Shown here piece after piece: positions 1 to 60,751 of a stretch of DNA of 64,000 nucleotides. Position numbers and translations under genes: made by a program. Origin of the DNA: Kiritimatiellia bacterium (GTDB taxonomy: Bacteria > Verrucomicrobiota > Kiritimatiellia > RFP12 > UBA1067). The stretch spans positions 23,569 through 87,568 of the forward strand of contig JAQIBS010000020.1 in assembly GCA_027858965.1 (NCBI GenBank). Direction: 5' to 3'. How positions within the stretch are numbered: position 1 is the first letter of the stretch; each line of letters opens with the position of its first letter. The notes under the pieces are model-generated. The model did no database searches, was not told where the DNA came from, and saw only the letters and a program-made list of their open reading frames with translations.

Positions 1-111
1 GCAAACTACAAGCTACTGGCTACAAGCTGGATTGCGGGCGAAGCTCGCATAAGTGCATTAGTTCATTAATGAAAAGAAGTCTATCAAGTCGGCAGGAATC
101 GATAGAGGTCG

Positions 112-4281: not shown

Positions 4282-8042
<3,761 letters not shown>

Positions 8043-8043
<1 letters not shown>

Positions 8044-8063: not shown

Positions 8064-8199
8064 AGGTTGAAGTGGTTGAAAGAATTGAAAAATTGGTTGC
8101 CTGCCTGTTGGCAGATAGGCGGTTGCGGAAGCTACGGTTAATTGATAAAATATTATCGTTTTCAACGGAGGTCTCTTATGAGTCATAAAATCAGACAAT

Positions 8200-8598
8200 T
8201 TGTTAGTAAAGGATTCTACAGGTAAGCGAATCATCATTGAGCTTCAATATAAAGATGAGGCAGATTATTTTCACAGGATGGCCTTTGGTGTCAGTAAATT
8301 GATTGCTGCATCTATCAATGAAATATTCCCCACTTTTTATATTCTGCGAATTAATGATTTTGATGATTTGCCCAAGGATGGATTGGATCAGTGGATATAT
8401 TTTCTGAAAAACGAAGCGTTGCCGGAAAACATTACTGCAAAAGGGCTGAAAGAGGCCCAGGACAAACTGGATATAATGAAGCTCAGTACGGCAGAGAGAT
8501 CGGCATACGATGAGTATCAGGAGCAGCTACGTATTGAAGCCAGCGAGATAGAGTTCAGAAAATGCTTAATGGATAAACTCAAGGAATCTCAGATTTAA
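8200..8598 (+). pseudogene. Rpn/YhgA-family (PD-(D/E)XK, transposase_31) nuclease fragment
   Basis: GKRIIIELQYKDEADYFHRMAFGVSKLIAAS resembles the '...IEMQ...' core of the TIGR01784 family; only about 130 aa where full-length members are about 290; upstream ATG (8178) is in another frame and stops after 15 codons; ORF begins at TTG. Confidence 0.35.
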
Positions 8599-8763
8599 AG
8601 TTGAAGTGGTTAGAACTGTAGGATTGCTTCTATGAAGCAAGATTGTCTATCCAATGTACCTGCCAAAGACTCGCCATGATAAGGAACACTCTTTATTTGG
8701 CTCATAGAGCCAACGCTACATCCCCAGGACGCGCCTTTTGAAAGTAACTGACATCCCAACTTT

Positions 8764-8856
8764 TCAAACACTCAAACCATCAAACCCTTAAACCCTCAAA
8801 CCTTCAAACCTTTTAACCCACTTTAACCTTCAACTTTTTTAACCCCTTCAACCTCT
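8764..8856. repeat. degenerate tandem 7/8-mer array (TCAAACC / TTAAACC units)
   Basis: caaacactcaaaccatcaaacccttaaaccctcaaaccttcaaacc... read directly. Confidence 0.8.
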
Positions 8857-8863
8857 TCTAACT

Positions 8864-9211: not shown

Positions 9212-9348
9212 TAGTGCGAAAGTTCTTATTATTGTCCACAAAGAACACAAGGAGCGCAAAGAAAAAGTCATATTCAAATTAACATATATAAATCTTTGTG
9301 TTCTATGTACTACAATCATTCAAATCCTTGTTTTCTGTGCGCGTTTTT

Positions 9349-9425
9349 TATCTCTCACAGAGTCACAGAGTGCACAGAGTAATATCTTTAGTGGTTTTCT
9401 CTCTGTGTTCTCTGTGACTCTGTGA
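9349..9425. repeat. long near-perfect inverted repeat (about 29-bp arms, about 18-nt loop)
   Basis: tctctcacagagtcacagagtgcacagag ... ctctgtgttctctgtgactctgtgagaaa. Confidence 0.8.
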
Positions 9426-9581
9426 GAAATAATTCTTGGAGCAGTAATATCTTGTAATCCTGTCAAAAATAATGGTTGCGGCTATGCTGCGCTATGTTCT
9501 TTCGCATGCCACGTCGTCATGTCACGCCGGACAAAAGAAGGCGGAAGACGCGAAGCGCGTAGACGGGTGGATAAAACAAAA

Positions 9582-11402: not shown

Positions 11403-11547
11403 CCTCTTAGAATTAATAATGGATAAATGATAACATGAAACAGCCTGATTGCAAAATAATGATTTTGATTACAGCACAAATTAATGAGATGACACATATG
11501 AAAATATCAAGGTTCGTCCAACTTTTTCATGGGTAAATCATCGCTAC

Positions 11548-11626
11548 TCGGTATCGGGACCGCTATCGCTATCGGACAAAGCAAGCATCAGTTTAAATTC
11601 GATACCGATACCGATTGCGATACCAA
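11548..11626. promoter_or_regulatory. imperfect long palindrome built from GGTATCG/CGATACC heptamers in a divergent promoter region
   Basis: ctcggtatcgggaccgctatcgctatcgga ...22-nt spacer... tcgataccgataccgattgcgataccaat between the SASA gene start (11402, -) and tRNA-Val (11823, +). Confidence 0.35.
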
Positions 11627-11822
11627 TAACCAAGATCAACATTCACGTGTACACTACAGATTTTGGAGCTATCAATACCATTTCAGCAATCAATAACCTC
11701 CAACTGAAAAAAAGTTGCCCCACACAAAAGCAATAGCACATAAGCATATTAAAACATGTTTTATAAAAAACAGACTTTCGTAAAACGTCCGATTAATGTA
11801 TATTACTATCACTTGGTCACAT

Positions 11823-11899
11823 GGGGGATTAGCTCAGTTGGTTAGAGCGCCTGCTTCACACGCAGGAAGTCAGCAGTTCGAGTCTGCTATTCCCCACCA
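11823..11899 (+). tRNA. tRNA-Val (anticodon CAC)
   Basis: GGGGGATTAGCTCAGTTGGTTAGAGCGCCTGCTTCACACGCAGGAAGTCAGCAGTTCGAGTCTGCTATTCCCCACCA folds as a cloverleaf; anticodon loop TTCACAC; encoded CCA. Confidence 0.9.
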
Positions 11900-12142
11900 T
11901 TTCTTTTCAGTCGACAGTTTCCAGTCGCCAGTTTTCAATCAACGGCTCATTAGAGTGCTTTAACAGAGTTCGTATCTGAAGTCTTATCTTCAAATTCTTT
12001 CACATCCTCCTCCGACCATACGCCCATTTTACCTTAAAAATGATTCTGTCAATAATCTAATCGCTTAAGCGGGCCAAACAAGAACATGAGAATTATCACA
12101 ATAATCCAGACAATGAGAGAAATCTGAGAAATTTTAAACAGT

Positions 12143-12980: not shown

Positions 12981-13204
12981 GGTAGTCCTCTTTCTTTATC
13001 ATGTATAAATGTTCAGATGTGAAATAAGCAGAATTGCTTTTTCCCCATATTCAATACGATTATGATAATAAGAATTAAGATTTAATACAAGAGCAGAATT
13101 CGCGCATTTCAGTTCCGTTGAATTTCCTGGTAAGTTGAATTAATGCAAAGGAAAGTAGTGCAAGCATCCTGCTTGCCTCAATAATTAGCCAAGGCCATCA
13201 GCCA

Positions 13205-13264
13205 ACCTAAAGCCTAACAGCCTAAAGCCTAACAGCCTAACAGCCTAACAGCCTAACAGCCTCA
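13205..13264. repeat. tandem octamer array (CCTAACAG/CCTAAAG)x8
   Basis: cctaaagcctaacagcctaaagcctaacagcctaacagcctaacagcctaacagcctcagc overlapping the purL stop codon. Confidence 0.9.
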
Positions 13265-16200
13265 GCAACTACTAACGAAGCTATGTGCATTATTAAACAT
13301 ACGCATCCAGGGACCTGCTTCATCCGTAAACATATCAGCCGGTTTGTAGGAGAGCTGTGCAGACCTGAATCCACGCTCAGGATGTGGCATCATGATTGTG
13401 ACACGTCCATCGGTGGTGGTGAAACCGGTCAACCCGTCCTTGGAACCATTAGGATTCCAGGGATAGCGCTCTGTGGCAGCACCATTGCCATCCACAAAAC
13501 GCAGAGAGGCCAAAGCATCTGCCTCATTTGCAGCACTGCAGAATTCAGCACGTCCCTCACCATGCGCTACGGCAATCGGTATCCGGGAACCCTGCATCCC
13601 TTTAAGAAGAACAGATGGTGAATCCAACACCTCAACGGTGGCATAACGCCCCTCAAACTGCTCTGAGATATTACGTTTGAACTGCGGCCAGTGTTCAGCA
13701 CCGGGAACAATGTCCTTTAGCTGAGATACCATCTGACATCCATTACAGACACCCAATGTAAATGTATTGGGACGCTGGAAGAAATTCTTAAATATATCCG
13801 CAAGTCTGGCATTATAGAGAATGCTGCGAGCCCAACCAGAGCCAGCCCCGAGAACATCACCATAGGAGAATCCGCCACAGGCAACCAGTCCGCTGAATTT
13901 ATCCAAATCAAGGCACCCACTCAAAAGGTCGGTCATGTGAACATCAACCGCATCAAATCCCGCCAGGGAGAATGCAGCCGCCATCTCAACATGTCCATTG
14001 ATCCCCTGCTCACGCAGGATAGCCATCTTAGGTTTCTCACATACCATTTCAACTGAACCAGCTGCTTCATTTTCATCGGGGCTGTACGTTAAATTGAATT
14101 GCATTCCGGGATCGCTCTCATCCAGGCCGTTGTCAAACTCCTGCCAGGCGCAGTCAGGATTATCGCGCAACGCCTGCATGCGACAGGTCAAAGACGACCA
14201 TTTGCGACGCAGCCAGGTGATATTTGTATCAATCACAATCTCGTCCTGCACTGAGATCTTGAAATCCCTGTTTTCCGAAACAGACCCAATAGTTGAAACA
14301 ACTCCATCCGCAAGACCATACTTGGCTAGAATTGCAAGCACCTGATCAACCTTATCGGCCGCAACCTGCACCACCGCACCCAGTTCCTCGCTGAAGAGAG
14401 CGGCCAGTGAATCCTCACCCGGCAGGGATGCACTAACTCCACGACCACCAGTGAATGCCATCTCAGCCAAAGTTACCACCAAGCCGCCATCGGAGCGGTC
14501 ATGATAGGCCAGAATAAGTTCATTCAGCACCAGTTCCTGCATGGCCTCAAAGAAAGATTTGAGCAATTTCGGATCATTAATATCCGCTGTCTGATTACCC
14601 ACCTGATTATAAACCTGCGCCAGAGCACTTGCCCCAAGGCGGTTAGCCCCTTTGCCCAGATCAATCATAAGCAACCGGGAGTCGCCCTGTTTTAAATTGG
14701 GTGTAACACTCTTACGCACATCCTCGACTGTGGCAAAGGCAGTAACAATCAAACTGAGAGGCGCCATCTGCTTGTGACTAACACCGGCTTTATCCTCCCA
14801 CACGGTACGCATTGAAAGCGAATCTTTACCAACCGGGATAGAAACACCCAGCGGAGGACAGAACTCCATTCCAACGGCCTGAACAGTATCAAAGAGACGG
14901 GCATCTTCACCATCCTCACCGCAGGCACACATCCAGTTAGCAGAGAGCTTAATATTGCCAATAGGGCCGATACGACTGCAGGCAATATTGGTTATGGCTT
15001 CTCCAACGGCCATACGAGAGGAGGCAGGACCGTCAACCAGCGCCACGGGTGTGCGTTCGCCGGTGGCCATTGTTTCACCGGTATAGGCTTTGTACCCGGT
15101 GATGGTGACAGCAGAGTCGGCAACCGGCAGCTGATATGGACCAACCATCTGATCGCGACAGACCATACCGGTAACAGTTCTATCGGTAATTGTAATTAAA
15201 AATGTCTTATCGGCAACAGCGGGAAGTAACAGAACCCGTTCCAGAGCATCCATCGGCGTAATACCATCCAGAGCCAGATCAGGCGGAGTGTTATCCACAC
15301 GCACCACATCACGCAGCATCTTAGGCGGTTTGCTCAGAAGCACGTTGATATCCATATCAATCGGTGTATCATTAAAGTGAGTATCTTTCAGAACCAGTCG
15401 CTGATCATCACCTGCCACACCAATAAAGGCAGCCAGGCAGCGTTCACGTTTACAGAGGTTCTCAAACATCTCGCGATTCTCCGGGGCAATGGCCAGAACA
15501 TAGCGCTCCTGAGCTTCGCAACACCAGATCTCCATTGGATTCATCGACATTTCTTCGTTGTTGACCGCACGCAGATCAAAGGTCGCTCCGGTCTCTTCAA
15601 CCAGCTCTGGGCATCCATTCGACAAACCACCGGCACCGATATCGTGAATGCTTACAATCGGATTATTAGAGCCCATGGCCACACAGGCATCAATGACTTC
15701 CTGACACCTGCGTTCAACCTCGGCATTGCCACGCTGTACAGAGTCGAAGTCCAGAGATTCATCATTACTGCCGGTATCCATAGAAGAGGCCGCGCCTCCA
15801 CCCAATCCAATACGCATGGCAGGACCGCCCAGCTGAACAATCAAATTGCCGGGCTGCAGCTCCTTTTTATAAACATGTTCACGCAAGATATTACCCATAC
15901 CGCCAGCCAGCATAATGGGCTTGTGATAACCGATAAAACGATTGGCAACCATCTCCTCAAAGGTACGGAAGAAACCACAGAGCTGCGGACGTCCAAACTC
16001 ATTACCAAAAGAAGCCCCGCCGATGGGACCCTCCATCATAATCGAAAGCGGAGATGCCAGGCGTCCGGGAAACTCAGCGTAATCTTTCTCCCAGGGCATT
16101 GCAAATCCAGGCACATGTAGGTCGGAGACCATAAATCCGGAGAGCCCCGCCTTTGTTTTGGAGCCGGTACCAGTAGCAGCTTCATCACGGATTTCGCCGC

Positions 16201-17140
16201 CCACACCTGTGGCAGCTCCGGGGAATGGTGATATCGCTGTGGGATGGTTATGCGTCTCCACCTTCATCAGCATATCAATCTGATCCTCTTCAAAATGATA
16301 CTGCTTACTAGCACCATCAATAGCAAAGGCTAACCCCTTATAACCTTCCATGACGCCAGAGTTATCGGAGTAAGCCACCAGAGTGCCATCAGGGTTGCAC
16401 TTATGCGTATTCTTAATCATGTTGAAAAGGGTCATATCCTTTTCATCACCATCCACAATCCAGGAGGCATTAAAGATCTTGTGTCGACAGTGTTCAGAGT
16501 TTACCTGGCCAAACATCACCAGCTCGGTATCGGTCGGATTACGGCCCGCTCCTGTATAGCTATCAGAGAGATATTCAATCTCATCCTCGCTCAGAGCAAG
16601 GCCCATATCCTGATTGGCCTTTTTCAAAGCGTCAACACCCTCAGCCAGAACATCAAAGACCTTGCCTTCAGCAGGAGGACGATGAACAAAAATATCATCC
16701 AAATTCAGATAAACACCCTCGGTCATCTTATCATGCAGAACATCAAATGCCTTTTCCAGATCGGCCAGAGCGATCTCGGTGCCATCCAGGGTTATGACCA
16801 GATGCATACCGCGTTCAACACGCTTGATCCCATTGATAGCGCAATTCCTGAAAATATCGGTGGCCTTAGATGACCATGGAGAGATAGTGCCCTTACGCGG
16901 TGTAATATAAAGTCCCCTTTTAAAACCGTCAAAGCTCTCCGCCCCCAACAAGGCGCAGGAGCGTTCCATGGTCAGCTCATCCAGCTCCCCCTCTTTCTCC
17001 AGAAGATATACATAATTTGAAACAACATTCAGCTCTCCGGAACAACCGAGAGCCTCCTGCATTGTTTTAATCAATGCGTCCAGTCGAAACTGAGAAAATA
17101 CGGGAATTCCCTTTAACATTAGCGGTGTCATATATATCAA
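13262..17140 (-). CDS. purL: phosphoribosylformylglycinamidine synthase, single-chain large form
   Basis: 1292 aa, the length of E. coli-type PurL; AIR-synthase-like repeats and a C-terminal glutamine amidotransferase (GVCNGCQ) recognisable. Confidence 0.9.
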
Positions 17141-17459
17141 TCCTCAATAAGGGCTTAACACCCATTAACTCACTGTGAAATCAGGAGAAACAAACACAGG
17201 TAATTTATCATTTTTTAAACTTCCAACACAAGCAAACGAAGAGTATATTTGTATTATTACTGATTCAAGCTTTGCCCACAAGCCAAAAGCCTACACCACG
17301 AAGAACACAAAGAGCACGAAGTTGGACGGATAAATTAATAATTCCTTCGTGGCCTTAGTGAACTTCATGGTTAAAAATGTAGCATTGGTCAACCTTTTCA
17401 ACCATTTTAACAGTCGTAAAAGCCGCTTAGGATATTACGTCAGAAAGATGTAAATAAAC

Positions 17460-18089: not shown

Positions 18090-18271
18090 CAATATCCAAT
18101 ATTCAATATCCAACCGAACAAGTAAAAAGGCGGCAGAGCGGCAACAAAATTCATGATCTAAATACGGAATCACTCTTCTGAACAATTTCAGGCGCAGCCT
18201 GCTAATAAATCGGCCCTCCATAATGCTATTCCGCGCAGCGGAATCGTATAATTCGGTGCGCCGAATTATTT

Positions 18272-19744: not shown

Positions 19745-19890
19745 AGATATCCCCCATTTCAGGTGTCAGGCGTCCCGCCTTCGCCCGCAAGCGGGGCTAC
19801 GGCGAGGCAAGCAGTCGTCAGGTGTTAGTGAAAATTGAAATGCAGCATCAGTTCACTGTCAACTGCAATCTGCACACAGCAAACTGCTCA

Positions 19891-19985
19891 CTGTAAACTG
19901 TAAACTGTAGACTGTAGACTGTAGACTGTAAACTGTAGACTGTAGACTGTAGACTGTAGACTGTAAACTGTAAACTGTACACTGT
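19891..19985. repeat. tandem octamer array (ACTGTAGA/ACTGTAAA)x~12
   Basis: ctgtaaactgtaaactgtagactgtagactgtagactgtaaactgtagactg... immediately 3' of the 19985-20950 gene. Confidence 0.9.
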
Positions 19986-20950
19986 CATCTGATTTCAAGC
20001 TCATCCCCTTTATCAACCAACTCATGCAGATGCAGACGTTCATCCGGCGAATTATTCGGCTGGTGCAGCGCCACCATGAGCTTTCCATCAAATGTTTTAA
20101 AGATCATACCATGCCCCCCGTTCTTGCGGTAGATCACCCGTTGCTCGTTCCAGGGACCACAGACCTTACCCGACTCAGAATGCGTCAGCACAATGCAGTA
20201 TCCTTTGCCGGGAATATGAGTAGACCAGATCATAAACAGCCGGTCGCTTTTCGGACTGCGATAGAGAAAACAGCCATCGGTCACCTTACCCCGCTTCGGG
20301 TCCTTAATACTTCCAGGGGCATCGCTCGCCTTAAAAAGCAGTTTAGGTTTTCCTACCGGAGCGGCAAGATCATCCTGTAGTTCCACAACATCCATAGTGC
20401 CGTCAATGGTCTGCACCCACTCATGACAGAAGATCATATAGGGCGTACCATCCTCAATATGCAGCGTGCCATCCAGTGCCATCCACCCTGCAGGTGTATG
20501 CGGACCTTTCTTAACCGGTTTGAAAGAGCCCTCAAGAGATTCACTAACATAGATGTGAGTTCCCCGTCGATTCATCGGCGGCCAACTCTTCTCATCAATT
20601 GGCTTCTTTTCTAACAATTTCTTATGATAGGTCAGTGTAACAAACAAGTAGTACTTGCCATTATACGCATGCACCTCCGGAGCCCAGACAAATCTGATCT
20701 TTTCAGGATTCCTAAGTTTCAGCACCGGTTTCGGCGGATTCCAGTTCTGCAGGTCCTTGCTGGTATAAACCTCAACTCCTTTAAAATCGCTGCCGGCACG
20801 GTTAGCCGCCTGCGCATACATGTAATAACTCTGCGTTGATTGATCCGCAACGATAAAGGGATCGCGAATGCGAATATCGGCAGTTTTAATCAGCTCTGCT
20901 GAAGCCGCAAATACGCAAAATAAAACGAGATAGGGAAATATAATTTTCAT
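19985..20950 (-). CDS. glycoside hydrolase, five-bladed beta-propeller (GH43-like)
   Basis: signal peptide; IRDPFIVAD...YYMY N-terminal blade motif typical of GH43 (GH32 and GH130 not excluded). Confidence 0.5.
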   Translation of the reverse strand: MKIIFPYLVLFCVFAASAELIKTADIRIRDPFIVADQSTQSYYMYAQAANRAGSDFKGVEVYTSKDLQNWNPPKPVLKLRNPEKIRFVWAPEVHAYNGKYYLFVTLTYHKKLLEKKPIDEKSWPPMNRRGTHIYVSESLEGSFKPVKKGPHTPAGWMALDGTLHIEDGTPYMIFCHEWVQTIDGTMDVVELQDDLAAPVGKPKLLFKASDAPGSIKDPKRGKVTDGCFLYRSPKSDRLFMIWSTHIPGKGYCIVLTHSESGKVCGPWNEQRVIYRKNGGHGMIFKTFDGKLMVALHQPNNSPDERLHLHELVDKGDELEIR

Positions 20951-21113
20951 ATTATAAAATGTAGTCCAAGAATCCTGCTTGGCATATTATTGAGGCAAGC
21001 AGGATGCTTGCACTACTTTCCTTTGCCGTAATTCATTTTCAGGGATGTTCAACGAAATTGACTTGCTCCTGTTTCTGATCAGGATAATGACTATGATTTA
21101 AGAACAAACCTGC

Positions 21114-22634: not shown

Positions 22635-23663
22635 TTAATTTACTGCACATAATTCTGGTTGTTGAGTGAGCTTTTCAAGCCACCTCAGCATAGATGGTTT
22701 TTTCCAAGGAGGCTTGCTTTTGTCCTTGGGTGCATCGACTGTTTCAAGCATTTTACGCTTCATTTCCATATCTATTTCAACGTACATATGTGTTGTATTC
22801 AAAACCGCATGTCCAAGCCAGTAACTTATCATTGTGATTTCATTATTGGCATGCAGCAGGTGCATGGCGGTGGTGTGCCTGATGCGGTGCGGATTAAGAG
22901 GTTTAGCCTTCAGCGCGGGCTGTTTAACCTGGGCAAGAAAACCATACTTTCGAGTTACATGGCGTATGCCAAAGCGGGTAATGGGGCCTCTATTGGCGTT
23001 GAGAAAGATCTGTTTCGTTTCCGGGTCTTTAGGTGTGCGCTGCCTGATATATGCGTTCAATGCGGTTACTGTTTCCGACCACAGCGGGCAGGACCGATCT
23101 TTATTTCCTTTCCCATGTAATTTAACCTGGGGTGCCTTATTCAGTTGTAAATCAGTAAGTTCGATGCCGATTATTTCGCTGACGCGTGCGCCGGTGTTGT
23201 AAAGAAGCATGAGCAGAGCTTTATCTCGTATGCCTGTGCGGGAGTTTATGTCAACTGCATCTAGAACTGCCTGCATTTCCTCCTCCTTTAGATAATCGAT
23301 GCTTTTATGTCTGGTGCGCTTCAGTGGAATACTTCGAACTTGCTGGCATTGCTCAACAAGGACGGGTTCTTCACGGGCAATGAACGCGAATAAGCTGCGG
23401 ATAGCCGCTAAACGGGCATTACGGGTGTTTGCAGTGCAACCTCTCTCCTGCTCAATGCTATCAAGAAAGCCGAGAACTGTCTTTTCGGTAATATCTTCAA
23501 CATCCAGTTTGTCAACAGAGTGTTTAAGCGTCTCAGCCGCGTAACAGAGTAACAGCTTAGTTGCGTCCCGGTAGGCAAGGATGGTATTGATTGAGAGCTT
23601 TCTTTGTATGGGCAGATAATGGCTGAAAAAACGCTTCAGCAACGGCGCGATGGAATGTGTCAT
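22635..23663 (-). CDS. tyrosine recombinase (RIT third gene, RitC-position)
   Basis: phage-integrase-family catalytic region HRIRHTTAMHLL...GH...T..Y; start overlaps the upstream gene's stop. Confidence 0.75.
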   Translation of the reverse strand: MTHSIAPLLKRFFSHYLPIQRKLSINTILAYRDATKLLLCYAAETLKHSVDKLDVEDITEKTVLGFLDSIEQERGCTANTRNARLAAIRSLFAFIAREEPVLVEQCQQVRSIPLKRTRHKSIDYLKEEEMQAVLDAVDINSRTGIRDKALLMLLYNTGARVSEIIGIELTDLQLNKAPQVKLHGKGNKDRSCPLWSETVTALNAYIRQRTPKDPETKQIFLNANRGPITRFGIRHVTRKYGFLAQVKQPALKAKPLNPHRIRHTTAMHLLHANNEITMISYWLGHAVLNTTHMYVEIDMEMKRKMLETVDAPKDKSKPPWKKPSMLRWLEKLTQQPELCAVN

Positions 23664-24655
23664 GATTGTTCTCCTTCTGATGCGATATGATTGAGGTAAT
23701 GATTATGGAACCGGCGGCTGACTTCACCTTGAAGTTCGGCCGTCGGCTGCAGGTATATCAGTGTCGAGCTGATATCCACATGGCCCATATATGTGGCCAG
23801 CGCAGGCAGCCGGGCATTAATATCTTCGCCGTCCTGATACCAGGCCAGCAGGCGATGAACTGCGAACGTGTGCCTCAAGTCGTGGATGCGCGGCCCGGTA
23901 TCCTTGTGGTAAGCTATATCGCAGGTTTTAAGCACTGTCCTGTACGTGGCGTAGACCGTCGGATGACTCAGCTGCCGGCAACACTCGTTTAGCAGCAGAG
24001 GTGATTCCGGTATATTCGGTTTCTTTTTGCCGCGTTGCTCCAGATACTGCTGCAATGCGTCGCGGGTTGATTCACTTAAAACTATCCAGCGGGCTTTACG
24101 GAACTTTCCCTTGGCAACATAGAGCCGCATCTCTGCCGGAAAGAAGTCCTCGATGTTCAAAGCCATGGCCTCTCCAATCCGGAGTCCAGTACTGTACAAC
24201 AGGCCGAACAGCGTCCAATAGGTTTGCGGGCGTAATGATCCTGTCGGAGTCAGCTGTAAAGAGGCCCGCAATAATGCGGCGACCTCCTCTTTTGTGAAGA
24301 TGTAGGCTCTGTGTGTCTGATGTGACGAGGGAGTACGTAACGCTTCGGGGATATAACTGAGCGGATCACTCAGTGCCAGATATCTGCATAATTGTCGGAC
24401 AACACAGAACCGGTTGCCCTGAGAGCGCGGGGCAAGACCGACGAGTTCTTTCTGATACGAATCGCAGGTCTCACGTGTTATGCGCCTCTGCCATATGTTC
24501 TGTCCGACCAGAAAGTGGTCGAAGTATCCAAGAAGACGGGCCTGGCTGGCATAGTCTGTGCCTGAAAGACATCGGAGTTTGATAAACTTCCCGATCTCTT
24601 CCGCTAAACAACTGCAAAGGGTCCATGCTCTCATGAGAGCACCTCCTTTGGCCAT
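23660..24655 (-). CDS. tyrosine recombinase (RIT second gene, RitB-position)
   Basis: RIHDLRHTFAVHRLL...LATYMGHVDISSTLIYL integrase R-H-R-Y motifs. Confidence 0.75.
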   Translation of the reverse strand: MAKGGALMRAWTLCSCLAEEIGKFIKLRCLSGTDYASQARLLGYFDHFLVGQNIWQRRITRETCDSYQKELVGLAPRSQGNRFCVVRQLCRYLALSDPLSYIPEALRTPSSHQTHRAYIFTKEEVAALLRASLQLTPTGSLRPQTYWTLFGLLYSTGLRIGEAMALNIEDFFPAEMRLYVAKGKFRKARWIVLSESTRDALQQYLEQRGKKKPNIPESPLLLNECCRQLSHPTVYATYRTVLKTCDIAYHKDTGPRIHDLRHTFAVHRLLAWYQDGEDINARLPALATYMGHVDISSTLIYLQPTAELQGEVSRRFHNHYLNHIASEGEQS

Positions 24656-25893
24656 TCCAGAGCAACCTGACTCAATGCGTTGAAGTCAACCTTGGTATAT
24701 ATGAAGGTTGTGGATAAATGTCGATGTCCAAGTACGTCAGCGACCGCTTTGAAAGAATACCCTTCGGCAACTTTCCGTGTCGCGAAAGCGTGACGGAAGG
24801 CGTGTGAGCCCTTGCAGGACACATTTATATCTGCTTCAATATGCCGACTGACGATAGCGGATAACGTACTGCTACGCGGCAGGCTCCGGTAAGGTGCGCG
24901 GCCTGTTATAAACACTTCCGGACAGGCGCATGCCGGTCGCCCTTCACGTAGATAATTCAGGATGCTTTTGCCGACCTCCCGTGTAATAGGCAGCAGGCTG
25001 TCCTTGCCGTTTTTAGTGGCTCTGAATAAGATCTGTTCGTTTTTCCAGTCAATATCACTGAGTTTCAGAGCTCGGACTTGGCCGCCTCTGACTCCGTAGG
25101 CGTGCAGTATGGATATGATCGCATAATCCCTAATGCCAACCGGAGTGCCGCAGTCAACAGAGTGAAGGATTGTCTGCGCCTGGGTTTCGTTTATACCACG
25201 CGGCACCCGCGCCAGCTTGTATGTGCGCAGTGTCGGCACCGCTTGATCAAGATGCAGATGGATGAAACCCTGATAGAAACAAAAGCGCAGAAATGTGCGC
25301 AGTGCAGCCTGCATTGAGCGGCGGGCCGCGTTTCCCATTTTATCTGCAATATCAAGAAAGAATGACTCAACGTCATCCGGCATCAGCTCACCCACGCCAT
25401 CGGATGTGGCTTTCGCCCCCAGCGCATTCAGAAATTTCACCAGACTGCTACGCCGAACTTTCAGGGTTCCCTCAGCAGCATGCTGATGATCTTTCATCCA
25501 CCACAGATAGCCGGAAAGCAACGATTCATAACAGGGCGTGTCTTTCCACACCTTAAATAAACCATTGTCATCAAGGTGTTTACAGAATCGATTGATCGAT
25601 AACCGATTCCGCCGGAGGTGTAATTCCAGTGGTCCCCTGTGCCTGCACAGCAACCTGTAGTCGGCATAAAAGGCATCAATATCGCTTTGAGTCAGATGCT
25701 CTTCCCATTTCCACTTTTCATCCGCAAGCCATGTGTTCAGATGTGATACATGGCTGAGATGCAAACGAATTGTACCTCTCGAAAACCCTTGATCCAGCAA
25801 TTCGTCACAAAAGTTATCCAGTAAGTGCCCCAAGGGCTCACTCCGCAATTTTGCCAGAGTGCATGAATAGGTAAAAACTTGTTCCAGTGCCAT
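24631..25893 (-). CDS. tyrosine recombinase (RIT first gene, RitA-position, 420 aa)
   Basis: HAFRHAFATRKVAEG...LGHRHLSTTFIYTKV integrase C-terminal motifs; longer N-terminal SAM-like region. Confidence 0.75.
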   Translation of the reverse strand: MALEQVFTYSCTLAKLRSEPLGHLLDNFCDELLDQGFSRGTIRLHLSHVSHLNTWLADEKWKWEEHLTQSDIDAFYADYRLLCRHRGPLELHLRRNRLSINRFCKHLDDNGLFKVWKDTPCYESLLSGYLWWMKDHQHAAEGTLKVRRSSLVKFLNALGAKATSDGVGELMPDDVESFFLDIADKMGNAARRSMQAALRTFLRFCFYQGFIHLHLDQAVPTLRTYKLARVPRGINETQAQTILHSVDCGTPVGIRDYAIISILHAYGVRGGQVRALKLSDIDWKNEQILFRATKNGKDSLLPITREVGKSILNYLREGRPACACPEVFITGRAPYRSLPRSSTLSAIVSRHIEADINVSCKGSHAFRHAFATRKVAEGYSFKAVADVLGHRHLSTTFIYTKVDFNALSQVALEWPKEVLS

Positions 25894-28749: not shown

Positions 28750-29061
28750 GTCATGATTGTTGTATCATCACAACCAGAAAGCAAAATGAGTTTATTGCAA
28801 TCGAGGTAATCGACTAAACACATTCTATTTTCTATATACTACGGAGCATAGCGACTCATTTTCCCTCTTCACCCTTCAATCTTCAATCTGTCCCCTCTAA
28901 CTTCATAATCCACAAGACGAGGTACGTGGGGCAGTGCGGATTTTGATTTTTGAGGCGAAGCCGTGCCCGCGAAGCGGGACAAAAAGCTCTTCCGCGTCGT
29001 CCCTCGCACCTCTTCAACTTTAGCACTTTAGAACTCTCGCACTTTAGAACTTCTTACCCCT

Positions 29062-30759
29062 TCACTCACCTATCCACCCAAGATCATCCTTCTTTCGGTC
29101 AATGATGCGACGCAGCATCCAGGCCAGCATCAGCAGAGCGGCAAACCAGAGCCACACAGCCCAGAGCGGCCAGTTATGGACTTCAAAATGCGTAAACCGG
29201 CAACCTGATATAAGAGAAGCTGTTTTAATCATGATCGTGGTAAATACAGCTGCCGCATTATTAAAACAGGCGGCCAGCCATACAGAGAAAAAACTGGCAA
29301 CAAAACCCAGAACGCCAGCGGTGACCAGCATCAGGGCACATGGGGTGATAATCATATTTGCAAGCAGTCCCCCGGGCGTGATCCGCTCAAAAAAATAGGC
29401 ACTCAAAGGCATTGAAGCCAACCAGGCCGATGTCGTTACCGCCATTAACTCCGCAATAAAGGTCAATACAGCAGCACAGCGACTGAGATATGCCGCTTTT
29501 TTATAATCCTCTGAAACAGAGTAAAGACGGGACTGAAGTTCGAGATCTTCAACCTTGAATGCCTTTTTAAATATTTCACAAACCGGCTTGAATAAAACAA
29601 TCAGCCCCAGCATAACACTGAAAGAGAGGATGCACCCAAGGTTAAAAATATATGACGGAGCAAAGAGGTGAACCACAAGCGCAGTGGCAGCCAGAGCCGA
29701 CAATGCGTTGAACCTACGGCCAATAACGGGAGCGGAAAAGTAGAACAGGGCCATTATACAGGCGCGAACAGCGCTGGGACGCAAACCAGTTGCAAAGGTA
29801 TATATAAAAAGCAGCGGTGCCAGGATGTATACCCAATAATAACGAGGAACACCGCACGAGGAAATAAAGAGAACCAGGACCGATGCGATCAAGGCAATAT
29901 GAAGGCCGGATATAGCAAAGACATGAATCGTACCCGACCAGGCAAATTTCTGTCGCAGCGCCCAGGGTATTTTACTTTTAAAACCCAGTAATACCGCCTG
30001 ATGAATAGCAACAACATCATGCCAGTCCTCAATGCCGATAGCGATACGACTGGATGCCCCTTTACTAAATTCGGCAACTCTGACAGCCAGAGCTCCTGAT
30101 TCACCGGAACTCAAGCATTTTGAATGGCTCTCACCGCTGTTTAGAATCAGCCGGGGGTCTCCACTACGATCCTCTCCCACATACATTCTCCCGGCAAAAC
30201 TCCACTTGTTCCCACGTTCAGGGACCTTGGTAACCAGCCCTTCTTTATCACCATACCAGTTAACAATCAAAGGAGCGGTGATATGTCGCCCCCCTTCAAT
30301 CAAGTGAACATCAGAAACTTTAAAACGATATCTGGCTGCGCGCCCCTTGAGTGGACGAACCGATGGATTATAAGCTACCGTACATTCAACAGATATAGCA
30401 CTTGATGATGATTCTACAAAAGAGATATCAGATCTGATTCTATAAATGTCATACGATGAACGCGCAAAACCGGCCACAAAAAAAATCAGAACTAAAAATA
30501 TTTTTCTGACAAATGGCTTGCAAAGCCAGAGAGAGAGAATGGAGAGTGCCACAAATATCAGGAAGAGGGAGAGATAAACAGCTGGAGTAAAACCGAAAAA
30601 TTTATAACCACCCCAAACACCGGCAAGAGAGGCCGCTGTTACTGTAACGATCAGTGGAATTTTTGCACAATCACGCAAAAAGATGACAAGATTTAAGAAA
30701 AGAGGTCCTAAACTCCTGCAATTTATTTTGCTCTCGCTATTACTATCATTCTTTTTCAT
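29062..30759 (-). CDS. comEC: ComEC/Rec2-family DNA-uptake channel protein (no beta-lactamase domain)
   Basis: DUF4131-like N-terminal TM region plus competence domain with AISGLHIALIASVLVLF; 565 aa polytopic. Confidence 0.7.
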   Translation of the reverse strand: MKKNDSNSESKINCRSLGPLFLNLVIFLRDCAKIPLIVTVTAASLAGVWGGYKFFGFTPAVYLSLFLIFVALSILSLWLCKPFVRKIFLVLIFFVAGFARSSYDIYRIRSDISFVESSSSAISVECTVAYNPSVRPLKGRAARYRFKVSDVHLIEGGRHITAPLIVNWYGDKEGLVTKVPERGNKWSFAGRMYVGEDRSGDPRLILNSGESHSKCLSSGESGALAVRVAEFSKGASSRIAIGIEDWHDVVAIHQAVLLGFKSKIPWALRQKFAWSGTIHVFAISGLHIALIASVLVLFISSCGVPRYYWVYILAPLLFIYTFATGLRPSAVRACIMALFYFSAPVIGRRFNALSALAATALVVHLFAPSYIFNLGCILSFSVMLGLIVLFKPVCEIFKKAFKVEDLELQSRLYSVSEDYKKAAYLSRCAAVLTFIAELMAVTTSAWLASMPLSAYFFERITPGGLLANMIITPCALMLVTAGVLGFVASFFSVWLAACFNNAAAVFTTIMIKTASLISGCRFTHFEVHNWPLWAVWLWFAALLMLAWMLRRIIDRKKDDLGWIGE

Positions 30760-30952
30760 GTTTTTTTTGCATGTTTATTTATCGCTAATATTATAACCTA
30801 TTAATAGTACATGAATTAAAAGACTGTACAAATGACAATACACTTTTAACACAAAGGCACAGTGACACTGAGTTATTAACCGAAAACACCAAACTCTAAA
30901 AAATGCTTGGCATCCGTCTTCTTTGCGTCTTTGCGCCTTTGCGGGAGAATAG

Positions 30953-32307: not shown

Positions 32308-34542
32308 ATGAGCATTGAATCACTGAAGAATTATGTATTTACATCAAAATACAGCCGATATATCCCCGAAAAAATGCGCCGCGAGACCTTTGAAGAGGCT
32401 GTCGAGCGTGTTATTGAGATGCACCGTACCCACTTTAACGCCAAGAACATCAATGTTGATGATTTGCTTGACCGCTGCGAAAAAGCCATCAAGAAACGTA
32501 TGGTACTGGGTAGCCAACGAGCCATGCAGTTTGGTGGCGAACCCATTCTGAAGAAGAATGCACGTATTTACAACTGCACGACATCATATTGTGACAGAGC
32601 TCGTTTCTTTCAGGAAGCACTCTGGTTACTACTCTGCGGTTGCGGCGTAGGTTTCTCTGTCCAGAAACATCATATTGCCAAGCTGCCGAAAATAGCCCCC
32701 CCCACTGGTGCGACAGATACATTTGTGATTCCTGACACGATTGAAGGATGGGCCGATTCTCTGGGAGTACTGCTCTCATGTTACTTTACATCTCATCATC
32801 CATTTCCTGAATTTGCAGGCAAAAAAGTTGTTTTTGATTACTCTCTGATACGCCCCAAGGGACGTCCGATCTCATCGGGCATGGGACGGGCCCCCGGCCC
32901 GGAGCCGCTAAAACGCAGCATGGAGCTAATCTCAGAGCTTCTGGAACGTTGTCTGGAAAAAGGATTGACCGAGCTGCGTTCACTTGATGCCTATGATATT
33001 CTGATGCATGCATCCGATGCCGTGCTCTCAGGGGGCGTACGCCGTAGTGCGACAATCTGCCTGTTTTCACCGGATGATGAACTTATGGCCAAAGCCAAAA
33101 CAGGCAACTGGTTCAACGAAAATCCACAACGTGCACGGTCAAACAACTCCGCCATTCTATTACGCAACGAGACAAGCCGCGAGCAGTTCTCATCGCTGAT
33201 GCAATCAGTTAAGGAGTTTGGCGAACCCGGTTTTGTCTGGACCGACAACCTGGAGATGACCTTCAATCCCTGCGTGGAAATTGGTCTCTACCCGCAATTT
33301 GAAGGTAAATCAGGATTTGCATTCTGTAACCTCTGCGAAATTAACATGGGTATTGTTGACACTGCCGAGAAGTTTAAGGAGTCATGCGAAGTGGCCGCCA
33401 TTCTGGGAACACTGCAAGCGGACTACACAGAGTTCACCTATCTTGGTGATGTCAGCACACAGATTGCCAAGAGTGAAGCACTGCTGGGAATTTCAATGAC
33501 CGGCATGATGGAGCATCCGAAAATAGCTTTTGACCCTGAGCTGCAGCGTAAAATGGCTAAACACATCATTAAAATCAATGCCAAAGTAGCAAAACTTATT
33601 GGGATCAACCCTGCAGCCAGAGCAACTTGTGTCAAACCAGCAGGATCAACCAGTTCCCTTCTAGGAACATCATCAGGAATTCATCCACACCATGCCAAGC
33701 GCTATCTACGCAGGGCACAGGCCAACGAAGATGAACTGCTGGTTGACTTTTTTAAGGGACAAAACCCCAAGGCTGTTGAGAAATCGGTCTGGAATCCCAA
33801 TGGCACCGATGTCGTACTGACATTCTGTATTGAGGCAAACCCAGATGCCATGACAAAAAGAGACCTCTGCGCCACAGACCTTCTTGAGAAGGTGAAATTA
33901 ACTAAAGAGAACTGGATTGATACAGGCAAGCAGGAAGAACTTTGTGCTAAACCATGGCTCAGCCACAATGTATCCAATACCATTTCCGTTAAAGATGGTG
34001 AATGGGATGCAGTTGAAGAATATATATATAAGCATCGCCGCGCCTTTGCTGGAATTTCACTGCTACCGGACGGTGGAGACCTTGACTATCCACAGGCCCC
34101 CTTCTGCGAAGTATTGTCTGCCGAAGACATTGTTGCAACCTATGGAGTCGGTGCCGTTCTGGCCTCCGGTCTGATTGTTGATGGACAGCACGCCTTTGAT
34201 GATAATCTCTGGGCAGCCTGCGACTGTGTTCTGGGACGCGGAGAAAATCTTAGTGAAGAGACTCCCAAGATTTATCCAATGCGTGTACTTGAAGCTATTG
34301 AAGAGGTCCGCAAACAGAAAAACGACTGGGTACGCCGGGCGCATAAATTTGCTGACAACTACTTTAACCGTGATTCCCTTAAGATGACACGTTGCCTCAA
34401 ACGCGTCAGCACCTGCAAGATGTGGGAAGATCTGACCCGGACATATGCACCGGTTGACTACACCCAGCTTATCGAGAAGCAGGACAACACAACCGTTACT
34501 CAGACTATTGCCTGTGCCGGTGGAAAGTGCGATATTCTGTAA
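32308..34542 (+). CDS. nrdJ: adenosylcobalamin-dependent (class II) ribonucleotide reductase, monomeric RTPR-like
   Basis: 744 aa, the length of L. leichmannii-type RTPR; active-site-like TFNPCVEIGL; C-terminal CxxC pair (IACAGGKCDIL). Confidence 0.65.
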   Translation: MSIESLKNYVFTSKYSRYIPEKMRRETFEEAVERVIEMHRTHFNAKNINVDDLLDRCEKAIKKRMVLGSQRAMQFGGEPILKKNARIYNCTTSYCDRARFFQEALWLLLCGCGVGFSVQKHHIAKLPKIAPPTGATDTFVIPDTIEGWADSLGVLLSCYFTSHHPFPEFAGKKVVFDYSLIRPKGRPISSGMGRAPGPEPLKRSMELISELLERCLEKGLTELRSLDAYDILMHASDAVLSGGVRRSATICLFSPDDELMAKAKTGNWFNENPQRARSNNSAILLRNETSREQFSSLMQSVKEFGEPGFVWTDNLEMTFNPCVEIGLYPQFEGKSGFAFCNLCEINMGIVDTAEKFKESCEVAAILGTLQADYTEFTYLGDVSTQIAKSEALLGISMTGMMEHPKIAFDPELQRKMAKHIIKINAKVAKLIGINPAARATCVKPAGSTSSLLGTSSGIHPHHAKRYLRRAQANEDELLVDFFKGQNPKAVEKSVWNPNGTDVVLTFCIEANPDAMTKRDLCATDLLEKVKLTKENWIDTGKQEELCAKPWLSHNVSNTISVKDGEWDAVEEYIYKHRRAFAGISLLPDGGDLDYPQAPFCEVLSAEDIVATYGVGAVLASGLIVDGQHAFDDNLWAACDCVLGRGENLSEETPKIYPMRVLEAIEEVRKQKNDWVRRAHKFADNYFNRDSLKMTRCLKRVSTCKMWEDLTRTYAPVDYTQLIEKQDNTTVTQTIACAGGKCDIL

Positions 34543-34590
34543 CAGTCTACAGTTCACAGTCTACAGTTCACAGTCTACAGTCTACAGTTT
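34543..34590. repeat. tandem array of CAGTCTACAG / TTCACAGTCTACAG units (reverse complement of the 19891 array family)
   Basis: cagtctacagttcacagtctacagttcacagtctacagtctacag immediately after the RNR stop. Confidence 0.9.
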
Positions 34591-34832
34591 GTGGTAAGTT
34601 CAGATTGAATCAATGATTCCGAATTGCAGATAACTGTGAGAAAAATAATAGTTTATTGAAAACGGAAAAAACCATTTATACTCAGTGCTTAACACAGTAC
34701 AGCCCCGCATTAGCGGGGTTTTTTCACATACAATGTTTTCACAAAACTGCATTCATTATTCGGGAAGGGCATGCTATAATGAACCTTCAGCTATAACAGA
34801 ACATAGGAACAAAAGAACAAAAATCCCCGCCA

Positions 34833-42526: not shown

Positions 42527-42779
42527 ACAGGGTGAAATCAAATTATTGGACTAATTTTACTAGCGTCCCTTTGGGACGTAGAGGCTTTAGGCTCTAGACT
42601 ATAGGCTATTGGGTGAAAAGCGCCTGGCAATTGTTTGAAATTATCAAACAAGCTTTAAAAAGGAAGTGTATAAAATTGTGATTTTCTAAAGTCTAACCAC
42701 CTAAAACCTAACGGACTGCATCCTTCTTGTCTGGGTGTAGTTCCGCTTGCGGGACGGAGACTGATGGGATGCCTGTGAT

Positions 42780-51360: not shown

Positions 51361-51445
51361 TGTTAGCATTTTTTAGCCTGTAGCTGGTAGCTCGTAGGGA
51401 GCTCTGTATTTTTTACTGCCAGCTACAGACTACTAGCTACAAGCT
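51361..51445. repeat. GTAGCT-rich quasi-palindromic repeat between xseB and xseA
   Basis: agcctgtagctggtagctcgtaggg...ccagctacagactactagctacaagct; shares the CTACAAGCT word with the partial array at window positions 1-30. Confidence 0.7.
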
Positions 51446-52860: not shown

Positions 52861-52935
52861 AGTTCCTAGCGCGACAAAGCCGCAAACAACTCGAACTTCC
52901 AACATTGAACATCGAACTTCCAACGTCGAAGGGGA
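52861..52935. repeat. short tandem repeat (TCGAACTTCCAAC x2 plus variants)
   Basis: aactcgaacttccaacattgaacatcgaacttccaacgtcgaagg. Confidence 0.7.
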
Positions 52936-58381: not shown

Positions 58382-58477
58382 TAATCACAGGCCCTTATCA
58401 AGATGTTGTACCTTGATTTGATGCCGTGTTTAAAGTAACATATAATAACTTTTACACGCATCCCACAGGATGCAGAA

Positions 58478-58515
58478 GTTTAGGTGTTTAGAGTGTTAGG
58501 TGTTTAGGTTTGCAG
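58478..58515. repeat. tandem octamer array (GTGTTTAG)x4 preceded by a gcatcc-caca-ggatgc hairpin
   Basis: gtttaggtgtttagagtgttaggtgtttagg read directly. Confidence 0.85.
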
Positions 58516-58579: not shown

Positions 58580-58662
58580 CCTAACAGCCTAACAGCCTAA
58601 CAGCCTAACAGCCTAACAGCCTAACAGCCTAACAGCCTAACAGCCTAACAGCCTAACAGCCT
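58580..58662. repeat. tandem octamer array (CCTAACAG)x10, the same unit as at 13205
   Basis: cctaacagcctaacagcctaacag... ten perfect units. Confidence 0.95.
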
Positions 58663-60651: not shown

Positions 60652-60692
60652 ACACCTAACAGTCTAAACACCTGCATCCTGCGGGATGCTTG
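60648..60692. repeat. inverted copy of the GTGTTTAG/CCTAACAG octamers plus gcatcc-tgcg-ggatgc hairpin
   Basis: ctaaacacctaacagtctaaacacctgcatcctgcgggatgc is the reverse complement, with few mismatches, of 58448-58500. Confidence 0.8.
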
Positions 60693-60751
60693 TGATAATT
60701 ATTTGATCACCTGATACACATAAAAACAATAATACAAAGCGGATACTGTTT

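Follow-up and report, generated by a model that had tools for sequence, protein, structure and literature searches.

The intergenic regions of a 64,000-nucleotide stretch of DNA from a Kiritimatiellia bacterium (assembly GCA_027858965.1, contig JAQIBS010000020.1, positions 23,569–87,568; hereafter the window) are populated by tandem arrays of 6–8-nt units, one of which, at 13205–13264, abuts the stop codon of purL and is referred to here as the focal array. The arrays of the window are intergenic repeats of the type known in cyanobacteria as short tandemly repeated repetitive sequences (STRRs). The explanation towards which the evidence leans, on balance, is that they are the stem arms, the pairs lacking an open reading frame (ORF) and the solo remnants of cassettes that resemble the intervening sequences (IVSs) of rRNA genes and have spread together with a gene of the S23p family.

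Short-unit tandem arrays in the window

Arrays were called with Tandem Repeats Finder (TRF) across the window, all intergenic regions of which were also read through. Seventeen non-redundant arrays with a period of 6–9 and at least 2.8 copies were found, whereas 30 dinucleotide shuffles contain 0.83 on average and never more than 4; similarly, the dimer (CCTAACAG)2, with up to two mismatches, matches the window 12 times for an expected 0.03. An initial annotation of the window had listed arrays of 7–8-bp units at eight loci or more; TRF places arrays at these loci, the count having been too low. ORFs of at least 100 aa leave 18% of the window uncovered, and it is there that all 17 are placed; none is in a reading frame, the array edges are near stop or start codons, typically within about 50 nt, and the genes they adjoin are unrelated in function. 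The initial description of a dispersed family at gene ends and junctions thus stands. The arrays follow RNA genes too, as heptamer units CAGTCGA/CAGTTTC (TRF period 14, 11904–11934) occur 8 nt after the tRNA gene 11823–11896.

The units are non-palindromic and arranged head to tail without spacers, and many different ones coexist within the window. There are two complementary types, the G-type (e.g. CTGTTAGG, GTGTTTAG, CTGTAGC) and the C-type (e.g. CCTAACAG, CTAAACAC, CTACAGT). The period is 8 at 13205, 58580, 58478, 9348 and 8764, 7 at 19890, 34542 and 51.4 kb, and 6 at 11540, so that the uniform period of 8 first proposed has to be abandoned. As to the CTA..ACA core said to be common to all units, it is present in CCTAACAG, CTAAACAC and CTACAGT, but not in TCAAACC, TCACAGAG or ATCGCT. 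The array reported at the purL stop and the ten perfect copies reported at 58580 were both recovered (Table 1), the latter with 100% matches over 58580–58662. The array reported at 34543 is, as stated, the complement of that at 19891 (pairs I3–I15, up to 94% complementary), whereas the one placed at 60655 is not an inverted CCTAACAG array but a direct-orientation composite, CTAAACAC-CTAACAGT-CTAAACAC, spanning 60644–60673. An Rfam scan of the window returned two tRNAs only, with no RNA family over the arrays and no rRNA, and no paper containing the octamer dimer was found in our literature search.

Paired arrays form long stems

Where a G-type array lies 5' of a C-type array, the two form the arms of a long stem. 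The window contains at least five such inverted pairs. Among the short ones, that at 9348–9432 has three octamers per arm and a minimum free energy of -51.1 kcal/mol (z -11.57 relative to shuffles, folded over 9345–9435); the others are 51375–51445 (z -4.28, folded over 51365–51440), 11540–11628 (z -3.83, folded over 11530–11635) and 42579–42715 (z -1.9). At a larger scale, terminal inverted repeats of about 58 nt, 58452–58515 and 60640–60695, bracket a 2.1-kb two-gene unit (Na+/Ca2+ antiporter and aldo-keto reductase) together with the (CCTAACAG)10 array; they can form a 57-bp duplex of -78 kcal/mol, compared to -22.6 ± 4.2 for shuffles (z -13). The 60644–60673 composite within the 3' repeat begins inside the stop codon of the aldo-keto reductase gene and is 93% complementary to the array at 58482–58511 (pair I18). 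Array-based arms may therefore bracket cargo other than the S23p gene described below, as they do round this unit. The upstream neighbour of the unit is a 207-aa orphan gene that matches only itself, which is why no empty site was found. Likewise, the G-type array 8064–8099 and the C-type array 8764–8858 bracket a PDDEXK_2 transposase-like fragment, ORF 8200–8598; this 132-aa ORF matches only positions 60–98 of the PD-(D/E)XK nuclease family transposase model (E 4.8e-8).

Solo arrays (13205, 19890, 34542, 18090 and others) also sit next to stop or start codons, but their RNA is no more structured than shuffles (z -0.4 to +1.0). Thus, the focal array is unstructured (z -0.41), as is the 19890 array (z +1.0), which, on the minus strand, is (CTACAGT)n and immediately follows the stop of the GH43 gene 19985–20950; the array at 34542, whose host gene encodes a class II ribonucleotide reductase (RNR), has a z of -0.65. 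These values agree with the initial remark that most of the arrays lack the hairpin and T-run of a terminator, real terminator-like hairpins being found further downstream. One of them, at 34701–34726, lies downstream of the 34542 array, which is therefore probably inside a 3' untranslated region (UTR); solo arrays in general probably sit inside UTRs, upstream of the real terminator-like hairpins.

Several simple roles were considered and rejected. The arrays are not intrinsic terminators: a consensus scan finds no terminator inside them and the solo ones fold like shuffles. A Rho-utilisation site or a PUF-, CsrA- or Hfq-type RNA motif would be read in one orientation, and both strands occur sense-oriented after stop codons. 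Orientation relative to replication does not account for the arrays either, both orientations being present inside a region of uniform GC skew.

The same octamer occurs in many phyla with a fixed polarity

When one genome of each prokaryotic species was scanned for exact copies of (CCTAACAG)3, at least 103 loci were obtained in about 50 metagenome-assembled genomes (MAGs), and 109 arrays of 3–24 units were taken from them; all counts given below for these loci and arrays are counts among the matches listed. Confinement to the window, which the initial annotation had named as grounds for doubt, is thus set aside. The hosts belong to more than 10 phyla and include Bacteroidales, Lewinellaceae, Ignavibacteria, Desulfobulbaceae and other Desulfobacterota, Victivallales, Planctomycetota, Verrucomicrobiota, Kiritimatiellia, Spirochaetales, Elusimicrobia and Aminicenantes, among others. 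Conserved mobile-element flanks were looked for by comparing the 103 loci with the window using blastn, and only the arrays matched.

ORFs of at least 150 aa contain none of the 109 arrays and genes are not split by them, although this absence is partly automatic because the CCTAACAG unit has stop codons in all six frames. An intact stop or start codon is found at a distance of a few nucleotides to some tens of nucleotides from the outer edge of the arrays, and convergent gene pairs around them outnumber divergent ones by 25 to 8. More specifically, paired arrays obey the polarity 5'-(CTGTTAGG)n...(CCTAACAG)n-3': by a strict count (loci L005–L107), the G-type partner is upstream 31 times and downstream once. 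Since an inverted repeat reads alike on both strands, this polarity is intrinsic to the structure and would not be produced by random juxtaposition. The 31 pairs comprise 10 that enclose the gene described in the next section and 21 without ORF, whose spacers are 14–235 nt long.

The octamer is also found in viruses. In viral contigs, CCTAACAG gave four matches and a permuted octamer none; in all four IMG/VR contigs (L195–L198) the (CCTAACAG)n array lies between genes. Phage contig L196 has the arrangement stop–(GCTGTTGG)5–loop–(CCTAACAG)n–ATG between two genes. No S23p gene was found in these four viral loci.

Some arm pairs enclose a S23p gene

The gene enclosed in 10 of the 31 pairs, between arms 164–653 nt apart, encodes a four-helix-bundle (FHB) protein of about 117 aa (MRDHNKLRAFELADE...), and it abuts arrays at four further loci; 12 of the 103 array loci contain a gene of its Pfam family, PF05635 (23S_rRNA_IVP/S23p), to which the protein matches with an E of 3e-33. 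The corresponding value for PDB entry 2GSC, the pentameric four-helix-bundle protein XCC0516 of Xanthomonas, is 1e-31. The S23p family is related to Avd, the accessory protein of diversity-generating retroelements (DGRs) (PMC10053308). FHB copies beside the octamer in Bacteroidales, Victivallales, Ignavibacteria and an unclassified bin are mutually 64–66% identical, and composite arms like that at 60644–60673 of the window stand beside FHB genes in two Bacteroidales loci (L020 and L062).

To avoid selection by the repeat, 80 FHB loci were chosen from metagenomes by protein similarity alone. Nearly all have a G-type array upstream of the gene and its complement downstream. TRF calls arrays upstream of the gene in 46 of 77 loci and downstream in 48 of 77, and arrays cover 17.1% of the sequence within 150 nt of the gene compared to 1.5% elsewhere in the same loci. 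For arm complementarity, counting shared 7-mers at random sites proved too permissive a control, and a direct-versus-inverted comparison of 8-mers was used together with near/far coverage: the upstream flank shares a median of five 8-mers with the reverse complement of the downstream flank and none in direct orientation. RNAduplex energies of 130-nt flanks lend weak support, since shuffles, too, give large values (-57 compared with -72 kcal/mol).

Unit and FHB protein vary together: the more identical two proteins are, the smaller the distance between their units (Spearman -0.38; none of 2000 Mantel permutations as extreme). The closest proteins are accompanied by CCTAACAG/CCTACAG, an intermediate group by CCTTCAG/CCTCCAG/CCTCAAG and distant ones by diverse heptamers. 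These comparisons indicate that, outside the window, such arm pairs enclose an S23p/Avd-family gene of about 117 aa and that the unit is apparently co-inherited with it.

The FHB family is large, with at least 7,764 clusters at E ≤ 1e-20, many of them on very short contigs, often below 1 kb. It extends to cultured cyanobacteria, where four plasmid genes annotated as FHB or 'S23 ribosomal protein' (in Nostoc punctiforme PCC 73102, Calothrix brevissima NIES-22, Trichormus variabilis ATCC 29413 and Anabaena sp. 90) carry inverted heptamer arms, e.g. GGGTGTA/CTACACC and GGTGACA/CTGTCAC. In Anabaena sp. 90 (plasmid pANA02, 43871–45027; L194), the S23p gene with its GGTGACA/CTGTCAC arms sits between cas6 and cas4 of a CRISPR-Cas operon. 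The literature searched, which is limited, yielded no paper that connects STRR-type arrays with S23p genes, so this is absence of evidence only.

These data bear on the view that the arrays are plain long-unit microsatellites, expanded in place by slippage wherever tolerated, which neither constitute an element nor have any connection with the FHB gene. Changes by whole units, decaying units at array edges (e.g. 19850–19890), the many units present in one window and the lack of positional conservation in relatives (see below) are what slippage would produce; the over-representation of heptamers in other bacteria has been ascribed to polymerase slippage (PMC4692102), and the six-frame stops of CCTAACAG make its absence from ORFs less telling. 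Slippage does not explain why the identical octamer recurs in more than 10 phyla when its permuted control is missing from viral contigs, why paired arrays keep a 31 to 1 polarity, why arrays are concentrated 11-fold beside FHB genes with a unit that co-varies with the protein, or why array edges fall at intact gene boundaries and leave genes unsplit. We therefore consider this view unlikely.

The arrays are real, variable in length and short-lived

Contigs from three Joint Genome Institute (JGI) metagenome assemblies are 99.3–100% identical to the window and contain the same arrays. In a 99.9%-identical JGI contig, the 58580 array has 8 units instead of 10, the sole true indel over 14 kb; one of about 17 arrays thus varied in the contigs compared, which answers the initial suggestion to look for length variation in close relatives. 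In relatives whose PurL is 87% and 81% identical, the array after purL is absent, but other 7–9-nt arrays are present, including at the syntenic junction with the 4HBT gene, where locus L108 has arrays of related units. Because they are shared across assemblies, differ by two units at 58580 and are missing after purL in relatives, the arrays are real, length-variable and short-lived at a given site. As judged from these alignments, copy number appears to change by whole units, and arrays to be gained or lost between related species.

The probability that the arrays are an assembly or sequencing artefact is negligible. It is true that at least 12 of the 109 CCTAACAG arrays are situated no more than about 100 nt from the end of a contig and that contig L002 begins inside the 58580 array. 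Yet the same arrays recur in independent assemblies of three samples, the unit is found inside multi-megabase long-read MAG contigs and a 5.47-Mb chromosome, arrays are present in finished plasmids of cultured cyanobacteria, and array edges respect gene boundaries precisely. Short-read metagenome assemblies seem to be broken systematically by such arrays; the contig-end loci are L010, L035, L042, L052, L054, L061, L067, L074, L095, L100, L103 and L107.

The variable array at 58580 lies 41 nt upstream of the antiporter start codon and differs by two units between near-identical contigs, as would be expected of a contingency locus, in which a variable number of repeats switches the adjacent gene (phase variation). 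That the arrays at large have this role is highly improbable: most are at 3' ends or between convergent genes, their neighbours include housekeeping genes such as purL and RNR, none is in a reading frame, and a single array of about 17 varied. Compared with contingency-locus simple sequence repeats (SSRs), then, the window offers one 5'-proximal array that differs (10 versus 8 units) and no in-frame array.

Another possibility is that the arrays are regulatory modules selected by the host (mRNA 3'-end stabilisers or processing stems, operon insulators, unstructured C/A-rich leaders favouring translation, multivalent sites for a host protein), which FHB genes exploit. Their tight placement in UTRs by start and stop codons, the strong intergenic hairpins and the persistence of arrays at the syntenic 4HBT junction of a relative fit such a role; moreover, a role in raising the stability of transcripts or in coupling translation has been suggested for the STRR hairpins of cyanobacteria (PMC2670836), and Xanthomonas transcripts start or stop at such repeats above expectation. 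We nevertheless regard this possibility as quite improbable, as the purL array is missing at 81–87% PurL identity, both orientations follow stop codons, solo arrays lack structure, the neighbouring genes are functionally unrelated and the presence of one identical octamer in different phyla is left unexplained by convergent selection.

Arrays as proposed arms and remnants of IVS-like cassettes

If the arrays derive from cassettes spread with the S23p gene, they would be the cis-acting arms of small, horizontally spreading, IVS-like passenger elements. The ORF-less pairs and solo arrays, the only forms present in the window, would be non-autonomous derivatives and remnants, as the hairpin-forming doublets (REPINs) of repetitive extragenic palindromic sequences (REPs) and single REPs are relative to the gene for the REP-associated tyrosine transposase (RAYT). 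The arrays would be transcribed within UTRs and intercistronic regions, where paired arms would yield double-stranded RNA that is cut by RNase III and/or shields mRNA ends, as in rRNA IVSs. The tandem build would allow several pairing registers and fast resizing by slippage; solo arms would be near-neutral and drift by slipped-strand mispairing, and the S23p protein may bind the repeats.

Several points weigh against this explanation. No PF05635 gene or remnant was detected in the 64-kb window or in about 75 kb of relatives (six-frame ORFs, E ≤ 1e-3, with only noise at E ≤ 10), and a search for an FHB remnant between the arms of the window gave none, even at E ≤ 10; the window would thus be linked to the cassettes by analogy of unit, polarity and position. 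Transcription of the arrays and their cleavage by RNase III are likewise proposed by analogy with rRNA IVSs. Arrays far outnumber FHB genes, 73 of the 109 being solo by the strict criterion, and no transposase, integrase or reverse transcriptase was seen beside the FHB cassettes; alternatively, the host arrays could have come first and served as preferred insertion sites for FHB genes. The covariation of unit and protein is confounded with host phylogeny, yet the same unit accompanies 64–72%-identical proteins across phyla. In the window itself, two larger pairs fold modestly (z -1.8 and -1.9), and the C-type strand directly follows the stop codon at three or four arrays (34542, 19890, 18090, 60644), opposite to the commonest orientation. 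Finally, the difference of 10 versus 8 copies could be an effect of short-read assembly.

A wider reading, which we find possible but rather doubtful, is that STRR-type arrays of all phyla, including cyanobacterial STRRs and Xanthomonas heptamers, are the cis-acting arms of one very large class of selfish, horizontally spreading cassettes whose only gene is the Avd-like S23p gene, its product recognising its own unit and promoting the spread or maintenance of arm pairs. Such recognition is suggested by the covariation of unit and protein. Spread might follow an RNA or reverse-transcription route like that of the DGR relative, and RNase III could free enclosed cargo from host transcripts, here the antiporter–reductase pair and the nuclease fragment. 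If true, this would explain a 35-year-old orphan class of repeats and define a new kind of mobile element without its own recombinase.

What is new is a mainly octameric family in Kiritimatiellia, within the already known STRR kind; the S23p link is an interesting lead. The shared architecture (a G-arm, a C-arm and often a S23p gene between them) recurs in Kiritimatiellia, Bacteroidota, Desulfobacterota, cyanobacteria and phages, and the S23p link makes the origin of short-unit intergenic arrays testable in tractable organisms such as Nostoc or Xanthomonas. The arrays are also variable-number strain markers and possible tracers of cross-phylum gene flow.

Comparison with known repeat systems

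STRRs of heterocystous cyanobacteria were reportedly described by Mazel et al. in 1990, and Vioque is said, from the title of a 1997 paper, to have located one inside the RNase P RNA gene. The unit of STRR3 is CAACAGT, and STRRs and heptameric SSRs are used in strain typing. The units of the window share an ACAGT-like core with STRR3, as in CTACAGT and ACAGTTC. Cyanobacterial STRRs are dispersed intergenic tandem arrays of 7-nt units that can form hairpins between genes (PMC2670836); its units are of comparable length, with a period of 7 at some arrays and of 8 or 6 at others, and the window resembles them in its many dispersed intergenic copies, the presence of several unit families in one genome and its hairpins between genes. 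It differs in that the host is a member of Kiritimatiellia, in the Planctomycetes–Verrucomicrobia–Chlamydiae (PVC) group, and in that the dominant unit is an octamer common to more than 10 phyla. Indeed, the nearest named relatives of PurL are from Kiritimatiellia MAGs (69–77% identical), so the host is not a heterocyst-forming cyanobacterium; NCBI also assigns an orphan protein of the window to a 'Kiritimatiellae bacterium'.

Rehm et al. (PMC4692102) described heptamers in Xanthomonas (GGGAATC) and Nostoc (GGGGA(C/T)T) that are about 90% intergenic and to which no function was assigned; they form 70–75 convergent inverted pairs, differ in length between species and are mostly transcribed, and S23p is not mentioned in that paper. 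The arrays studied here follow a similar positional rule (about 8 of 12 window arrays fit it), are depleted between divergent genes, vary in length among close relatives and frequently form inverted pairs, namely 31 for 109 arrays elsewhere and at least five in the window. The initial view that no named class fits is hence superseded, as STRRs and intergenic heptameric SSRs have the same positional rules and inverted pairs (PMC4692102, PMC2670836). Two differences remain. The Xanthomonas and Nostoc heptamers carry G-tracts and form G-quadruplexes in vitro, whereas CTGTTAGG, GTGTTTAG and ACTGTAG contain GG at most and no tract of three or more G; and in Xanthomonas 90% of the arrays occupy conserved positions in two species, in contrast to the purL array, which is lost at 81–87% PurL identity.

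IVSs with a S23p ORF are found in helices 9, 25 or 45 of the 23S rRNA in Leptospira, Coxiella and Brucella; that of Coxiella combines the S23p ORF with a 28-bp terminal stem cut by RNase III and with strain-variable GACAGAT heptamers (PMC4990558). The likeness lies in complementary termini that form a long stem around a PF05635 gene, in the sporadic, horizontally acquired distribution and, for Coxiella, in the variable tandem heptamers. Long-stem complementary termini are present in the window (9348–9432, 51375–51445, 11540–11628 and 58452–58515/60640–60695), and the flanks of FHB genes are likewise complementary. Unlike IVSs, which reside in 23S rRNA and whose cleavage by RNase III is demonstrated, the cassettes described here lie between protein-coding genes and have stems built of tandem units, with ORF-less forms only in the window.

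In architecture, the closest parallel is provided by the REP/REPIN–RAYT systems, reportedly described by Nunvar in 2010 and by Bertels and Rainey in 2011, in which a small gene flanked by inverted short repeats is accompanied by more numerous gene-less doublets and singlets, intergenic and often at 3' ends. REPs are single imperfect palindromes of 20–40 nt that can stabilise mRNA at 3' ends, and the RAYT is a Y1 transposase with known chemistry. Here, by contrast, the arrays are tandem and the gene between the arms belongs to PF05635 and is not a transposase, with the reservation that no window-wide RAYT search was made; S23p is a non-catalytic four-helix-bundle pentamer related to Avd (PMC10053308). 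MITEs (miniature transposable elements with inverted repeats) are similarly short, non-autonomous and intergenic, with terminal inverted repeats comparable to the arms seen here, but these arms are variable-length tandem arrays, which leaves a target-site duplication undefinable, and no parental transposase was seen. The initial exclusion of REPs, bacterial interspersed mosaic elements (BIMEs) and CRISPRs holds for tandem, non-palindromic 6–8-nt units without spacers: CRISPR repeats measure 23–50 nt and alternate with unique spacers of similar length. Integron attC sites were, like CRISPRs, rejected on anatomy.

Features of the window and minor observations

Coordinates are collected in Table 1.

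Table 1. Arrays, paired arms and associated features of the window
Feature	Position	Strand	Remarks
Focal array, (CCTAACAG)~7 on +; (CTGTTAGG)n in purL sense	13205–13264	+	TRF 13206–13262, CCTAACAG x7.4; solo G-type arm in purL 3' UTR
purL, single-chain	13262–17140	minus	NCBIfam E = 0; stop TGA = 13262–13264, array starts directly at stop
58-nt module with hairpin GCAAGCA-GGA-TGCTTGC	13136–13193	minus	Downstream of purL array; inverted copy 20978–21035, 93% complementary (pair I2)
(CCTAACAG)10.4, perfect C-type array	58580–58662	+	Ends 41 nt before ATG of Na+/Ca2+ antiporter gene 58704–59684
5' terminal inverted repeat	58452–58515	+	Hairpin GCATCC-CACA-GGATGC 58458–58473, then G-type (GTGTTTAG/GTGTTAGG)x4 58478–58511
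GTTTAGGT x4	58478–58509	+	TRF call within 5' terminal inverted repeat
3' terminal inverted repeat	60640–60695	+	C-type composite CTAAACAC-CTAACAGT-CTAAACAC 60644–60673, then hairpin GCATCC-TGCG-GGATGC 60674–60689
(ACTGTAG/ACTGTAA)13.7, period 7	19850–19985	+	TRF 19890–19985; degenerate units on left, 19850–19890 (D2)
(ACAGTCT ACAGTTC)n, period 7/14	34542–34590	+	TRF 34542–34588; starts at last base of ribonucleotide reductase stop codon
Intrinsic-terminator-like hairpin GCCCCGC-AUUA-GCGGGGU then U6	34701–34726	+	z -4.91
G-type array, GGTTGAAG-like	8064–8099	+	After stop of ORF 4282–8043
Short G-type run	8599–8622	+	Directly after ORF 8200–8598
C-type array, TCAAACC / CTTCAACC-like	8764–8858	+	Ends 5 nt before ATG of 4HBT thioesterase gene
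ORF-less inverted pair (TCACAGAG)3, 21-nt loop, (CTCTGTGA)3	9348–9432	+	Near-perfect 31-bp hairpin (I16)
Inverted pair between convergent genes	42579–42715	+	G-type arm 42579–42612 (GGCTTTAG GCTCTAGA CTATAGG CTATTGG)
C-type arm of 42579–42715 pair	42686–42715	+	CTAAAGT CTAACCAC CTAAAAC CTAACGG
Inverted heptamer pair GCCTGTAGCTGGTAGCTCGTAG ... CAGCTACAGACTACTAGCTACAAG	51375–51445	+	3' arm overlaps stop of minus-strand gene 51437–52801
~3 heptamer units CTACAAG/CTACTGG	51419–51445	+	3' arm of 51375–51445 pair
~3 heptamer units CTACAAG/CTACTGG	1–30	+	Window edge; unit type as in 51419–51445 arm
Inverted pair of hexamer arrays, ATCGCT-like then CGATAC-like	11540–11628	+	Unit type also in Kiritimatiellia MAG locus L059
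Weak array, CGAACTTCCAACAT x2, TCGAACA-like	52880–52930	+	Between two minus-strand genes; TRF 52891–52930
Minor array CACTTTAG/AACTTTAG x4.6	29016–29052	+	Abuts stop of gene 29062–30759
Minor arrays like 29016–29052	18090–18113, 28866–28889, 30920–30943, 34798–34822		

The window contains other repeats. The second copy of the 58-nt GCAAGCA-GGA-TGCTTGC module (20978–21035) lies between two minus-strand genes, and the module resembles a dispersed terminator-like element distinct from the arrays. Other dispersed intergenic motifs, CACAAAGAACACAAGGAGCGCAAAG-like and GGTTGCGGCTATGCTGCGCTATGTTC-like, occur in the window at 9237–9261, 17297–17321 and 9474–9499 and in locus L108 at about 6100–6300; the GGTTGCGGCTATGCTGCGCTATGTTC-like motif is also present in the relative with the 87%-identical PurL, and these motifs make up another repeat family in the lineage. 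Three minus-strand genes (22635–25893) are bracketed by an inverted repeat of 133 nt, 77% complementary and without short tandem units (22475–22607/25998–26130); regulatory regions that have been duplicated could account for it, as could the termini of a segment that is mobile or invertible. Inside the 1253-aa ORF 4282–8043, (ATG)13.7 at 6818–6858 is read in frame as GAT and encodes about 13 aspartates. Finally, a ParE-toxin/antitoxin gene pair lies at about 47.9–48.4 kb, according to the JGI gene calls on an identical contig (locus L199, 724–1232).

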